Below, in pieces: positions 58,952 to 63,394 of a stretch of 64,000 nucleotides of DNA. Location: assembly GCA_034436555.1 (NCBI GenBank), contig DAOTUU010000021.1, positions 36,415-100,414 of the forward strand. The letters are read 5' to 3'. The notes beneath the pieces were generated by a model, which was not told the origin of the DNA, did not search any database, and saw nothing but the letters and a program-made list of their open reading frames with translations. A program made the position numbers and the translations under genes. Source of the stretch: Chloroflexota bacterium (GTDB taxonomy: Bacteria > Chloroflexota > Limnocylindria > Limnocylindrales > CSP1-4). Every line of letters starts with the position of its first letter. Position 1 is the first letter of the stretch.

Positions 58952-60367
58952 TCAGACCATCGTCTCCGCGCGCACGATCGCATCGAACTGCTCCGCGCTG
59001 ACGTAGCCCAGCGCCAGCGCGGCCTCGCGCAGGGTGGTGCCCTCGTGGTGCGCCTTCTTGGCCACCTCCGCGGCCCGGTCGTAGCCGATCGTGGGCGCGA
59101 GCGCGGTGACCAGCATCAGCGACCGGCCCACGAGCTCTGCGATGCGGCCGCGGTCCGGCTCCAGGCCGTCCACGCAGAACTCGCGGAACGAGCGGCAGGC
59201 GTCGGCCAGGAGGCGGATCGAGCGCAGCACGTTGGCGATGATCACGGGCTTGAACACGTTCAGCTCGAAGTTGCCCTGGGAGCCCGCGAACGCCACCGCG
59301 GCATCGTTGCCCAGCACCTGGGCGGCGACCATCGTCATGGCTTCCGACTGGGTGGGGTTCACCTTGCCGGGCATGATGCTGGAGCCCGGCTCGTTCTCCG
59401 GCAGGGCCAGCTCGCCCAGGCCCGATCGCGGCCCGGAGCCCAGCCAGCGGATGTCGTTGGCGATCTTCATCAGGCTCACCGCGAGCGTCGTCAGCGCGCC
59501 GCTGGCGAAGACCAGCGCGTCGTGCGCCGCCAGCGCGGAGAACTTGTCGGGCGCGGACACGAACGGCAGCCCGGTGAGCGCCGAGATGCGCGCCGAGGCC
59601 CGCTCGCCGAAGCCCGCCGGCGCGTTGAGCCCCGTGCCCACCGCCGTGCCCCCGATGGCCAGCTCGGCGATGCCCGACAGCACCTGGGCGATGCGCGCCA
59701 GGTTCGCGTCCAGCTGGGCGACATACCCCCCGAACTCCTGGCCCAGCGTGAGCGGCACCGCATCCTGGAGGTGCGTCCGGCCGATCTTCACGATGTCCCG
59801 GAACTCCGCAGCACGTCTCGCGAGGGCGTCCCGCAGCTCGGTGACCGCGGGGATGAGCCGCTCGTGGATGGCGATCGCGGCGGCGATGTGCATCGCGGTG
59901 GGGAACGTGTCGTTGGACGACTGGGACATGTTCACGTGGTCGTTGGGGTGGACCGGCTTCTTGGACCCCAGGACGCCGCCGGCCAGCTCGATGGCGCGGT
60001 TGCTGATGACCTCGTTGGCGTTCATGTTCGTCTGGGTGCCGGAGCCCGTCTGCCAGATGTAGAGCGGGAAGTGGGCATCCAGGGCACCCGCGATGACCTC
60101 GTCCGCGGCGCGTGCGATGAGGTCCGCCAGGTGCGCGTCCAATCGGCCGTCCGCGGCGTTCACCTGGGCGCACGCCTTCTTGAGGATGCCCATGGCATGG
60201 ACCACCTCGATCGGCATCCGGTCGCCTGCCGGGTCACCGATCGCAAAGTGGTGGAGCGAGCGCTCCGTCTGGGCGCCCCAGTAGCGATCGGCGCGGACGT
60301 CGATGGCGCCCATGGAGTCGGTCTCGGTGCGGGTGGCCGCGGCGGAGGTCTGGTCGTGCTGGGTCAT
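58952..60367 (-). CDS. fumC: Class II fumarate hydratase
   Basis: [37 protein letters not shown] and [11 protein letters not shown] motifs. Confidence 0.97.
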
Positions 60368-60462: not shown

Positions 60463-60538
60463 GCGCCCGTAGCTCAGTGGATAGAGCGTCTGCCTCCGGA
60501 GCAGAAGGCCGTGAGTTCGAGTCTCGCCGGGCGCGCCA
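60463..60538 (+). tRNA. tRNA-Arg (CCG), CCA encoded; probable integration site
   Basis: GCGCCCGTAGCTCAGTGGATAGAGCGTCTGCCTCCGGAGCAGAAGGCCGTGAGTTCGAGTCTCGCCGGGCGCGCCA folds as a cloverleaf, 76 nt. Confidence 0.97.
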
Positions 60539-61210
60539 AAACCACCTTCACCCGCTCCGGCAGCGCGAGTGCGAGTCCGTGTCGCATGACGTCCTCCGTG
60601 AGCTCGACCTCCACGATGCCCTTGTCGGTGACGACGACGCGGTCGTAGACGGTCGCCACCAGGTTCGCACGTTCCGCTTCCCCGCCTTTGTCCCAGGCGA
60701 GCTTGAGGTCGCGCAGGAAGCGGACGATGCGGTCGCCATCGGACATCGAGGCGGCCGGACGGACGTCGACGAGGGCGTCCAGCTCCGCGGTCAGCCGCGC
60801 ATGCTCCGCCAGGTACGCCTCGGTCGTCATCCGTCGCGCCGCGTGGTCGGCGGCCTGCCTCGCGAGGTCCCGCTCGATCGCCCGACGCCGCAGCGTCGTG
60901 TCCACCGGCAGCGGCTCCCCGGCGCGCGCCCGCAGCCTCGCCACCGTCGCGTCATCCACCTCGAGCTGTGACAGCTGGGCCACGATGGGCGCCTCGAACG
61001 TCTCCGCGACGCGCGTCACCGTCGACCACTGCTCGCAGCGCTCGTGGCGGTATCGACGGCGCTGGGCGCCGGACTTGTCCGTGTGGGTCTCGGCGCGGAC
61101 GGCGCGCCCGCACGGGCACCACAGCCGCTTGGCGAGCAGGTGGACCCTGCGCGGATGGCGGCGACCGGCCGTCACGACCCGGCGCGAGCGGACCTCCTCC
61201 ACCCGGCTCC
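60474..61210 (-). pseudogene. C-terminal fragment of a large serine recombinase (zinc ribbon plus coiled coil)
   Basis: SRVEEVRSRR...HLLAKRLWCPCG...RYRHERC, coiled-coil segment, then ERANLVATVYDRVVV. No catalytic N-terminal domain upstream; the frame ends inside the tRNA antisense. Confidence 0.72.
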
Positions 61211-61217
61211 GGTCCGG

Positions 61218-61475
61218 ATGGAGGCCGCGCGGGTCGAGGCCCACGAGCTCGACGCGGTCGCCTGGTCGCCCGTCCGCGCCGACGAGCAGACACTCGACAC
61301 CTGGACCACGGACGGCCCGATCTACCGGGACGTCCCCCGCTGGGAGGTCCGCCGGGACGACGGACAGGGCTGGGACACCGCCACCGATGAGGAGCCGTGC
61401 GACGGGTTCACGGGCGGCAACGCCTGGGGCGCCTGCGCGAAGTGCGGACGCCGCCTCGAGGACCACGCCGCCTGA
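61218..61475 (+). CDS. Small phage-like hypothetical protein, possibly N-terminally truncated
   Basis: MEAARVE...PCDGF...CAKCGRRLEDH with a Cys/His cluster; no clear SD. Confidence 0.45.
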   Translation: MEAARVEAHELDAVAWSPVRADEQTLDTWTTDGPIYRDVPRWEVRRDDGQGWDTATDEEPCDGFTGGNAWGACAKCGRRLEDHAA

Positions 61476-61559
61476 CGCCGAAACCGGGCGCTCGCCCGGT
61501 CCGCCGGAGACCCCGCCCGGCGCTGACGAGGCAGGGGACCAGCCACCAGGAGCACCACG

Positions 61560-61880
61560 ATGGCCACCAAGAAGGACGCCACCGGCGAGACCACCGCCAG
61601 CGGCATGCGCCGCTGCATCGGCAGCACCACGTTCGGCATCGAGACGCACGAGGCGCCGGTCGACGACTTCCCCGTCCAGGCGAGCGCTAAGGACGGGCTC
61701 GGCCGGATGTGTCGCGAGCACTGGACCGCCTACACCCGAGCGCTCCGGAAGGCCTCGCTCGCGCGCAAGGCGGATGTCGGCGAGCCCGAGTCCGCTGCCG
61801 AGCTGGACGCCCCCATCGAGGCGCCTCGCCGAACGCGCCGGACGAAGGCGGCGCCCGAGCCGGAGGCCGTCGCCGGCTGA
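61560..61880 (+). CDS. Small phage-like protein with possible metal-binding motif and basic/acidic tail
   Basis: AGGAG SD upstream; RRCIG...H...DGLGRMCREHW motif; followed by a hairpin. Confidence 0.7.
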   Translation: MATKKDATGETTASGMRRCIGSTTFGIETHEAPVDDFPVQASAKDGLGRMCREHWTAYTRALRKASLARKADVGEPESAAELDAPIEAPRRTRRTKAAPEPEAVAG

Positions 61881-61902
61881 CCCACCCTTCCGCCGCACGT
61901 CG

Positions 61903-61933
61903 GGCCCCGGGCACGAGTCCGGGGCCTTCGTCT
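61903..61933 (+). terminator. Probable intrinsic terminator
   Basis: ggccccgg-gcacgagt-ccggggcc followed by ttcgtct. Confidence 0.55.
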
Positions 61934-62039
61934 GTCCGGTGGCATCCGTGCTCGACTCGGCGCGCACCGCGGCACTCCGCGGCCCTGTCGCGCCCACGGC
62001 CCGACCACTACGATGGGCTGCCTGAGGGAGGGCGATGGG

Positions 62040-62759
62040 GTGGATGAGATCGATGTCGGCAAGGGAGCGATCCTGCGAGGCAAGGCCCTCGAGGACGCGG
62101 CCGTCGCCTGGGTCATGGAGTACGAGCGTCGGGAGGGCCGGGTCCCCGTGGACCGCCGCTACCAGGCCGGCTTCCCCGGGGACATCGAGAGCCCGCCGCG
62201 GCTGATCGAGGTCAAGTCCACGGCGACCAGCTACCGCGGGTGGTTCCTGCCCCTGCAGCCGGTCCAGGTCGAGCACGCCCGCACCGACCCGACCTTCCAC
62301 GTGTATGTCGTCGAGCACATCGGATCGGGGCGGGATACGAGCAAGTTCACCCTGCGCATCCTCGCAGGGGAGCATCTGCGGCGGCTCGCGGAGGCGGCCG
62401 TGGCGAGGACCTCCTACGAGGTCCCGTGGCCCACCGCCGACTACGACGCCACCGCGATTGAGGGAGCCCCCATGCCGGTCGTGGCGCCGCAGGCGACCCG
62501 AGCCGAGGAGCCCATCACTCCCTCGCTGGGGCCCGCGAGCGACGTCGCCATGGCGATCGCCTCCGCGATCCGTGGCCTGGGCGGAGAAGCGAGCGTGCGC
62601 GACATCGAGGCGGCCGTGGAGACGGCTCACCCAGGCCGGTGGCGCAGCCTTGGGACGGCCATCGCCGATCACACCTATCCCGGGTCGCCCTCGTCCCTGG
62701 TCCCACCCGAGCGGCGGATCCTGGTCAGGGTCGAGCGCGGGCGCTATCGCCTGCGCTGA
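62040..62759 (+). CDS. DUF3883 (PD-(D/E)XK-type) nuclease domain with C-terminal winged-helix-like domain
   Basis: GKALEDAAV, GDIES and LIEVKST, then FHVYVVE; the C-terminus reads AIRGLGGEASVRDI...RVERGRYRLR. GGAGG 8 nt before GTG 62040 and TACGAT at 62009-62014. Confidence 0.75.
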   Translation: MDEIDVGKGAILRGKALEDAAVAWVMEYERREGRVPVDRRYQAGFPGDIESPPRLIEVKSTATSYRGWFLPLQPVQVEHARTDPTFHVYVVEHIGSGRDTSKFTLRILAGEHLRRLAEAAVARTSYEVPWPTADYDATAIEGAPMPVVAPQATRAEEPITPSLGPASDVAMAIASAIRGLGGEASVRDIEAAVETAHPGRWRSLGTAIADHTYPGSPSSLVPPERRILVRVERGRYRLR

Positions 62760-63167
62760 AGCCGGCCGACGACCGGGAAAATCGGCGAAACCCGGCCGCG
62801 CGTACACGCTACCCGCGGCGTCATGGCGGACCGACGGCCCGGTGATGTGGGTACCCCACCGGTTGTCCTGCGTTGCGCTCTTCACCCGGTGGTGGCGAGC
62901 GCAGAGACTCGGCAGGTTGGCCGGCTCATCGGTCCCCCCGTGGACCTTGGGCACGACGTGGTCGACGTCGGTCGCCGGACGCCCGCAGGGTCGAGCGTCA
63001 CCGGCGCGCCGCCACTGGCACGCTGGGCGCCGCAGCAGCTGCCGAGCCCGACGCTTCTGCCAGTCGGCGCCGTACCCGCGCTGTGTCGTCGTCCCGCCGC
63101 CGCAGGCGACGCAGCGCCCCGGACGGGAGGTGACCCGCAGGCAGCCAGGGCACGGGTGGGCGGTCAC
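62760..63167 (-). CDS. Phage HNH endonuclease (gp74-like); no in-frame stop, 3' end approximate
   Basis: CPGC...CVAC...RGYGADWQKRR...C...C...ATDVDHVVP...GG.D...NL..LCARHH..K. The GTG start overlaps the holin stop. Confidence 0.8.
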
Positions 63168-63394
63168 GGGCCCTCGGCGTCCTCGCCATCGAGCAGCCGC
63201 TCGACCGTCGCCGGCGCGAACACGCCGGCGCGGATGACGACGCCCGCGACGATCAGCGCGATGGGCCCGAGGACCATCAGGTCCTCGTCTGTCAGCGCGA
63301 ACCAGCGGGCTACGATTGCCAGCAGGATGGCGGCGGGGAAGCTCGCGGTGAGGACGGGCTCCTTCTGCGTGGTGTAGCGCAGGAAACGCTCCAT
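63164..63394 (-). CDS. Holin-like small membrane protein
   Basis: 76 aa, two TM segments, charged C-terminus, directly after the endolysin. Confidence 0.7.
   Translation of the reverse strand: MERFLRYTTQKEPVLTASFPAAILLAIVARWFALTDEDLMVLGPIALIVAGVVIRAGVFAPATVERLLDGEDAEGP

Follow-up and report, generated by a model that had tools for sequence, protein, structure and literature searches.

A probable attachment site inside the reading frame of a Limnocylindria serine recombinase family, traced from a decayed phage remnant at tRNA-Arg(CCG)

In a family of large serine recombinases (LSRs) from Limnocylindria (Chloroflexota), the attachment (att) site very probably lies inside the integrase reading frame, and the C-terminal tail of the enzyme is swapped when the element integrates into a tRNA gene. 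We arrived at this reading from a 64,000-nt stretch of DNA (G000:C21:36415-100414; hereafter the window), in which the attL scar of a temperate-phage remnant sits at tRNA-Arg(CCG). Limnocylindria are an abundant uncultured lineage of soils and freshwaters, and serine integrases are major tools of genome engineering. According to a large survey from 2026, serine-integrase proviruses prefer protein-coding targets (PMC13626063), which agrees with the remark in a sequence-only reading of the window that tRNA targeting is more typical of tyrosine integrases; for serine integrases it is indeed unusual.

The tRNA-Arg(CCG) gene of the window is complete, with an encoded CCA end, and is overlapped from the opposite strand by a recombinase-like frame (Table 1). 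This minus-strand frame runs from about position 61208 to a first stop, a TGA at 60476-60474, so that 65 nt of it lie inside the tRNA gene. The sequence-only reading had described a recombinase frame without a stop ahead of the tRNA and an overlap of this length, and its coordinates and peptide proved exact when checked with ARAGORN and by translation. In DNA of about 70% GC, however, a 21-codon open run is unremarkable alone, and the significance of the overlap must therefore come from relatives.

That the frame represents the C-terminus of a serine recombinase was borne out by BLASTP and tblastn, but the window copy is a C-terminal fragment only and not a complete enzyme. Residues 35-263 of the frame align with 50% identity to residues 265-495 of a 520-aa homolog in the attP form (P0034), i.e., the window recombinase corresponds to residues ~265-495, the zinc-ribbon and coiled-coil half, of an LSR of ~520 aa. 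Pfam found neither a match nor a catalytic domain in the fragment and no resolvase-domain match on contig C21, and three intact LSRs are encoded on other contigs of the same genome. As residues 1 to ~264, including the catalytic domain, are missing, the gene can perform neither integration nor excision. The window copy is thus a dead, 5′-truncated pseudogene at the attL end of a decayed phage remnant, in which a deletion would have taken the first ~264 codons of the integrase. An 897-codon open frame at 60474-63167 (−), extending from the HNH gene to the recombinase fragment, was rejected as a high-GC artefact, since it crosses three plus-strand genes and shows homology only within the two real genes.

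Table 1 Features of the window at and beside tRNA-Arg(CCG)
Feature	Position	Strand	Evidence
Host flank fumC, class II fumarate hydratase; conserved beside tRNA-Arg in the genus	58952..60367	−	Pfam PF00206 and PF10415; genus search
tRNA-Arg(CCG), attL hybrid: positions 1-60 host, 61-76 element	60463..60538	+	ARAGORN; repeat boundary
tRNA-antisense tail of the prophage-form frame: 15 codons and D-loop TGA stop	60474..60522	−	Translation; identical stop in homologs
16-nt att core and restored tRNA 3′ end (tRNA positions 61-76)	60523..60538		blastn-short against genome; three-copy comparison, identity starts exactly here
Putative crossover dinucleotide, CT here, CC in most relatives; LSR-type dyad centre	60523..60524		Dyad centres in attP-like junctions: G079, G151, G000 copy 2, G009 phage
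5′-truncated LSR pseudogene (zinc-ribbon and coiled-coil part)	60525..61208	−	BLASTP, Pfam negative, tblastn
Deletion junction: recombinase homology ends, plus-strand small ORF starts	61208..61240		Alignment limit; ORF map
E1 cargo small ORF	61237-61475	+	ORF map
E1 cargo small ORF	61560-61880	+	ORF map
E1 cargo NOV_C/DUF3883-type nuclease gene	62013-62759	+	Pfam PF13020
E1 phage late gene: HNH endonuclease	62850-63167	−	Pfam PF01844
E1 phage late gene: holin-like ORF	63164-63394	−	ORF
E1 phage late gene: amidase endolysin	63405 to beyond 64000	−	Pfam PF01510

Of 200 sampled genomes from the same family, 84 contain homologs of the fragment. Among the 11 best loci, 10 have a tRNA-Arg at the 3′ end on the opposite strand, with frames that end inside the tRNA. 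None of the nine intact relatives first examined has a stop ahead of the tRNA and eight share the identical D-loop TGA, while the frame of locus L010, at another tRNA-Arg, stops 50 nt into the tRNA. A second, independent set comprised 74 loci containing the C-terminus, from one-genome-per-species contigs of Limnocylindria/Limnocylindrales and other Chloroflexota MAGs; 48 of these end antisense in tRNA-Arg(CCG), including 25 with frames of at least 480 residues, and 12 further loci bear a different, conserved tail. Because relatives keep the frame open into the tRNA, the overlap goes beyond chance, and the frames of intact relatives run into the tRNA rather than stopping before it, as the sequence-only reading had implied. 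Judged from these sequences, the overlap of attachment site and gene characterises the family in Limnocylindria (Chloroflexota). Genomes of the genus differ at the window tRNA: a related integrase occupies it in G207 and G206 but not in G215 and G210.

Other representatives end in tRNA-antisense peptides from several different tRNAs. Of the three intact LSRs in the window genome, one (G000:C61:147022-148860, −) ends inside tRNA-Glu(TTC) with …YPQGDSNP before the stop, a second (G000:C24:41151-42725, −) ends inside tRNA-Pro(CGG) with …GRDGRGERI, and the third (G000:C36:5135-6679, +), where no tRNA was called, ends with …EFGRGERI and may sit in an attP-like context. The frame of locus L135 apparently reads through two successive tRNA-antisense peptides (…ALSTELQA… twice), which suggests integration beside tandem tRNA genes or tRNA fragments.

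Full-length relatives of ~500-520 aa contain the Resolvase catalytic domain PF00239 (E 5e-18 and 4.5e-11), which is absent from the window copy, together with an almost invariant R-x-S catalytic motif (R23/S25) and a conserved zinc site, C-x-C…H-x2-C (C295, C297, H319, and C322). Since PF07508 and the zinc-ribbon Pfam models match neither the window fragment nor the full-length relatives, assignment to the LSRs rests on PF00239 and on fold comparison. In the AF2 model of P0034 (44-sequence alignment, pLDDT 92), residues 8-478 match full-length serine integrases, with 9dxh (Z 17.2), Bxb1 (9iu2, Z 14.5), phiC31, and LI (4kis) as matches in the PDB. By this fold match, the relatives possess the recombinase domain and the zinc ribbon with coiled coil, and it is the zinc-ribbon/coiled-coil part that the window fragment spans. 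In tblastn searches of 50,697 phage records, neither the fragment nor a full-length relative gave a useful match, and no cultured phage with an integrase of this family is found there.

The 16 nt at the 3′ end of the window tRNA, together with the recombinase 3′ end to which they are fused, recur twice downstream on the same contig, at C21:104110 and C21:108792, both outside the window; a tRNA-derived repeat at the other boundary had been anticipated in the sequence-only reading. The three copies in the genome become identical exactly from tRNA position 61, and the direct repeat of 16 nt comprises the crossover and the tRNA end with which the element rebuilds the gene. Interior junctions in two related genomes (G079 and G151) form an imperfect palindrome of ~48 bp; its central CC is equivalent to tRNA positions 61-62, and its right half is made up of tRNA positions 63-76 and the first codons of the integrase. 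Copy 2 of the window genome has an equivalent dyad centred on CT, and the attP of a phage-form carrier (G009, see below) shows perfect 10-bp outer repeats with its centre at tRNA-Lys positions 61-62. On sequence grounds, with short, imperfect half-sites around a central dinucleotide, the junction architecture is of the serine-integrase attP type. The crossover, whose position we derived from dyad symmetry and repeat boundaries, would fall at tRNA positions 61-62, the LSR-type dyad centre. The T-stem pair is A52:T62 in the tRNA-Arg of the window genome versus G52:C62 in genus relatives (window 60511-60527 versus L061/L062/L063/L070), and the putative crossover dinucleotide thus differs between hosts (CT versus CC), a difference that the elements appear to track. 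When IMG/VR was scanned for the exact pattern of the attP core, one contig was returned and discarded, as its right side is unlike an integrase 3′ end.

The order on C21 is the tRNA, element E1 (7.2 kb), element E2 (4.7 kb, of lower GC and with mostly unknown ORFs), a ~100-nt scar, and a host alpha/beta-hydrolase gene. Copy 2, at C21:104110 (95% identity), retains a 133-residue recombinase fragment and copy 3, at C21:108792, one of 33 residues. Two older scars of related elements stand in tandem after E1, and the decay gradient is compatible with repeated integration into the rebuilt tRNA, the newest element probably being closest to it. The partner att site sought by the sequence-only reading was recovered in part: copies of the tRNA 3′ end exist as junctions between tandem decayed elements, but not as a clean attR beside host DNA, as no fourth copy of the 16-nt repeat was found in the window genome and the array ends in the ~100-nt scar abutting the hydrolase gene. 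One might also suppose that the truncated fragment in the window, which keeps the DNA-binding half of the enzyme (zinc ribbon and coiled coil) in an open frame, has been domesticated as a DNA-binding protein occupying attL. For the truncated form, however, we found neither a start nor a promoter nor any conservation, and the ever shorter fragments in copies 2 and 3 look like decay, which makes domestication very improbable.

Pfam assigned no function to most of the cargo ORFs of E1 and E2. A 706-residue ORF without Pfam match (L001:1440-3557, +; G000:C21:101439-103556, outside the window), located in the lower-GC (59-67%) part of E1, may be unknown cargo, possibly a defence gene. At least three P-side tail blocks per contig, spaced by 4-5 kb, are present on G123:C2, G086:C4, G154:C30, G200:C16, and others, which suggests that in many Limnocylindria genomes tRNA-Arg accumulates tandem stacks of small integrase islands (4-8 kb).

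A phage-form counterpart of these scars is present on contig G009:C49 (17.5 kb, no tRNA). Its intact integrase frame crosses a palindromic attP and ends with …RIPIVGRSAWLRSAKTA before the stop; an HNH gene, an AAA_25 helicase-type gene and a phage metallopeptidase gene lie on one side of the integrase, with portal and capsid genes on the other, and the HNH-then-integrase order is common to this contig and E1. The P′ arm of its attP matches the 16 nt at the 3′ end of a tRNA-Lys(CTT) gene that is intact and unoccupied and lies on a different contig of that assembly. From this gene and the junctions, both attP and the alternative C-terminus could be reconstructed, a step that the sequence-only reading had proposed. 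The same evidence bears on the possibility that a tyrosine integrase brought the element into the tRNA and that the serine recombinase fragment is unrelated cargo adjoining it by chance. While a direct repeat of a tRNA 3′ end is a classic mark of tyrosine-integrase sites, and a PF00589 protein is encoded 5 kb away on a related metagenome contig (P0007), contig C21 contains no PF00589 match, recombinase and tRNA lie side by side in dozens of genomes and in a constant frame register, the junctions show an LSR-type dyad, and the G009:C49 phage attP lies inside a serine integrase gene. We consider a tyrosine route extremely unlikely; the serine recombinase is the probable agent of integration.

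The two states of the gene differ in how the protein ends. The attP forms end with …IPIEGRDEWLAAARRLA and variants thereof before the stop, whereas the attL forms end in 15 tRNA-antisense residues. Where an attP-form gene is intact, its frame passes through the dyad centre and reaches a stop after another 26-30 codons; read across junctions of the G079/G151 type, it continues from …ARPTG into VGRALATYEIPIEGRDEWLAAARRLA and a stop. The attP-form tail is conserved over ~25-30 residues, with the motif …IPIxGRxEWL…A directly before the stop, and intact tailed genes were found on G009:C49, on P0003-P0005, P0007, P0009, P0017, P0025, and P0034, and at five loci of the 74-locus set. The proposal of the sequence-only reading that the att site lies inside the integrase gene, with integration swapping the C-terminal tail, thus stands for the family, as the attP and attL tails attest, but does not extend to the window copy, which is without a catalytic domain.

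Several lines of evidence indicate that the tail is a coding part of the integrase. A 121-nt junction probe matched 102 of 201 family genomes (a tally that counts one unpublished genome, G082, on which none of the specific statements depends), frequently with several matches on a contig, 4-8 kb apart; DNA probe searches favour similarity to the query and so inflate apparent conservation, an effect that does not touch the codon-position pattern or the protein-level matches. In 30 fetched copies, the TGA of the integrase frame marks the exact start of homology, and the left side is unrelated. Summed column entropy was 6.2, 3.5, and 16.0 at codon positions 1, 2, and 3, respectively (24 ungapped copies), with variation concentrated at third positions, the mark of a coding constraint on the integrase frame. 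The final 18 tail residues lie outside any plausible half-site, and the tail is better conserved than the neighbouring 3′ coding DNA of the integrase. Even copy 2 of the window genome keeps a diverged yet recognisable tail (…VPIRGRAEWL…), and the motif IPIxGRxxW is kept in lineages that are only 38-45% identical and have different att cores; in database proteins found via the integrase body, the cores ahead of the tail motif read …SPEG…, …ARPTG…, or …ARPAR…. A plus-strand gene as the cause of the P-side conservation was rejected, because there is no long plus-strand ORF, the homology ends at the integrase TGA and the plus frame is broken by a stop. At interior P-O-P′ junctions, none of 30 loci holds an intact integrase; all are fragments, and the tail there is never joined to an intact gene.

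Modelling suggests that the tail is a folded module. In the AF2 model of the attP form (P0034), a strand at residues 487-491 (P′-encoded) is followed by a lower-confidence loop at 491-500 (the att core), a second strand at 500-504 (pLDDT 95) and a helix at 510-519 (pLDDT 89), while an integrated-form relative modelled likewise has pLDDT < 50 at residues 488-501 and no hairpin, with the proviso that AF2 confidence partly depends on the alignment supplied. The attP tail is accordingly predicted to be ordered and the tRNA-encoded tail to be disordered. As the loop coincides with the att core, the crossover would fall in the loop of the predicted hairpin, and integration would remove the second strand and the helix. 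Known LSR structures align only to model residue ~480, ending before the tail, and no precedent assigns it a role.

This last point, together with the arbitrary sequence of the tRNA-encoded tail and the fact that prophages must still excise by means of the truncated form, could be taken to mean that the layout is real and the swap functionless: the enzyme would be complete at …LALALPE, both tails would be tolerated, and the arrangement would be a compact int-attP module. The divergent C-termini of DsiB, the serine integrase of Dehalococcoides genomic islands, are compatible with such a reading (PMC3146451). A merely tolerated tail is, however, hard to reconcile with conservation above that of the neighbouring integrase 3′ coding DNA, with variation at third codon positions, with a motif kept across lineages that differ in their att cores, and with the predicted order of the tail (pLDDT ~90-95), and we regard a functionless swap as rather unlikely.

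Alternatively, the tail could serve mainly as a degradation or stability signal, with a short-lived free-form integrase and a stable, tail-less prophage form. The tails end in conserved basic-x-Ala (…RRLA, …RSA, …KTA), the host tmRNA tag ends in …YAA, and in mycobacteriophage BPs, where attP likewise lies in a gene, the viral form of the repressor carries an ssrA-like tag at its C-terminus and the integrase also has a C-terminal proteolysis signal (PMC4557955). The tail termini are nevertheless not closely like the host tag, and conservation resides in an internal strand and helix with a predicted fold, suggestive of more than a degron at the terminus. A stability role is thus possible by analogy with BPs and from the basic-x-Ala termini, but it is doubtful as the main function, as the folded prediction favours a structural role. 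Returning to the exchanged tail as a functional module of the integrase, it is too conserved to be meaningless, yet the prophage must excise with the truncated enzyme, and the tail would therefore more likely modulate direction, synapsis, or lifetime than serve catalysis.

We propose the following sequence of events. The attachment site would lie inside the integrase frame, ~25-30 codons ahead of the natural stop. Its P′ half-site would be formed by the codons …V-x-x-A-R-P together with copied tRNA positions 63-76. The crossover dinucleotide would coincide with tRNA positions 61-62, with which the 3′ strand of the T-stem starts, and the P half-site would lie across the crossover from P′ together with the last ~26 codons. 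Integration would rebuild an intact tRNA, to which the host contributes positions 1-60 and the element positions 61-76, and would at the same time cut the integrase gene, so that the prophage copy would run antisense through the tRNA to the D-loop TGA and gain 15 arbitrary residues, whereas the circular or phage copy would end in the conserved strand-plus-helix tail (…IPIxGRxEWL…A). We infer that the tailed enzyme would be the integration-competent form and that loss of the tail may change the activity, direction, or stability of the enzyme; the sequence-only reading had likewise raised a possible directionality or stability switch. More tentatively, and as a possibility that we would not yet favour, the strand-helix module, which would be present only in a circular element or downstream of another element, may act as a sensor of the integration state, with the tailed enzyme integrating and the tail-less prophage enzyme being biased to excision or locked until induced.

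Comparison with known systems shows which parts of this design have been seen before. The integrases of phiC31, Bxb1, and Listeria A118/LI share with the family the fold (catalytic domain, recombinase domain, and zinc ribbon with coiled coil) and a short attP with an imperfect dyad around a 2-bp centre, but they do not possess the strand-helix tail at the C-terminus (their alignment ends at ~residue 480); they are known to use protein-coding or intergenic targets, with attP outside the int frame. The integrases of Mx8 and of mycobacteriophage BPs are tyrosine recombinases. In Mx8 (IntP/IntX), attP is inside the int coding sequence and integration gives a new 3′ end and altered enzyme properties (PMC6070905), with a mechanism and att architecture different from those of the family here. 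In BPs, the integrated state yields a C-terminally shortened protein of different stability, but the gene split at attP encodes the repressor and not the integrase (PMC4557955). The SSV-type “suicidal” integrases of archaeal viruses and plasmids are tyrosine-recombinase analogues with the att site inside their own gene; there, the split disrupts the gene, while the family here exchanges only a tail of ~26 residues.

The closest parallel is DsiB, an ssrA (tmRNA)-specific serine integrase of Dehalococcoides genomic islands described by McMurdie et al. in 2011, which is also the only report that we found on serine integrases with attP inside int (PMC3146451). Both are serine recombinases of ~500-540 aa from Chloroflexota, compared here by layout, and in both the 3′ end of the gene overlaps attL, with a stop only in the RNA gene or the neighbouring island; McMurdie et al. 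suggested that the DsiB gene is perhaps fully functional only on the circular element (PMC3146451). Both systems also form tandem island arrays marked by a short direct repeat of the RNA-gene 3′ end. DsiB differs in targeting tmRNA instead of the tRNA T-stem, in being paired with a second small serine recombinase, DsiA, whereas none was noticed beside the genes examined here, and in having divergent C-terminal ends without a conserved tail, whereas the tail here is conserved, coding-like and predicted to be folded, and one carrier is a true tailed phage. One related contig (P0007) carries, besides the integrase, Prim-Pol/D5 primase, ParB, and PAPS-reductase-type genes, and DsiB islands possess a similar module of ParB, a PAPS-reductase-type protein, and primase. 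The layout has thus been noted once before in related bacteria; new here are the Limnocylindria lineage, the T-stem target in tRNA-Arg and tRNA-Lys, the tailed-phage carrier and the evidence that the exchanged tail is a conserved, coding, and probably folded module.

The directionality of serine integrases is generally attributed to the coiled-coil motif and a separate directionality factor alone. The message of the window itself is modest, as its copy is a dead scar; the family, in turn, would rewrite its own C-terminus at each integration and excision, and the part that is lost is a conserved and apparently folded module. If the tail does act as a state sensor, directionality or stability control would be hard-wired into the integrase gene beside, or instead of, a recombination directionality factor, and the tail exchange could reveal a natural, self-contained control of direction or enzyme lifetime. 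For annotation, the design explains integrase genes that seem to be without a stop codon and run antisense into tRNAs. Serine integrases regularly target tRNA genes in Limnocylindria, where islands accumulate in tandem at one tRNA, and the design of an attachment site inside the integrase gene appears to be widespread in Chloroflexota.
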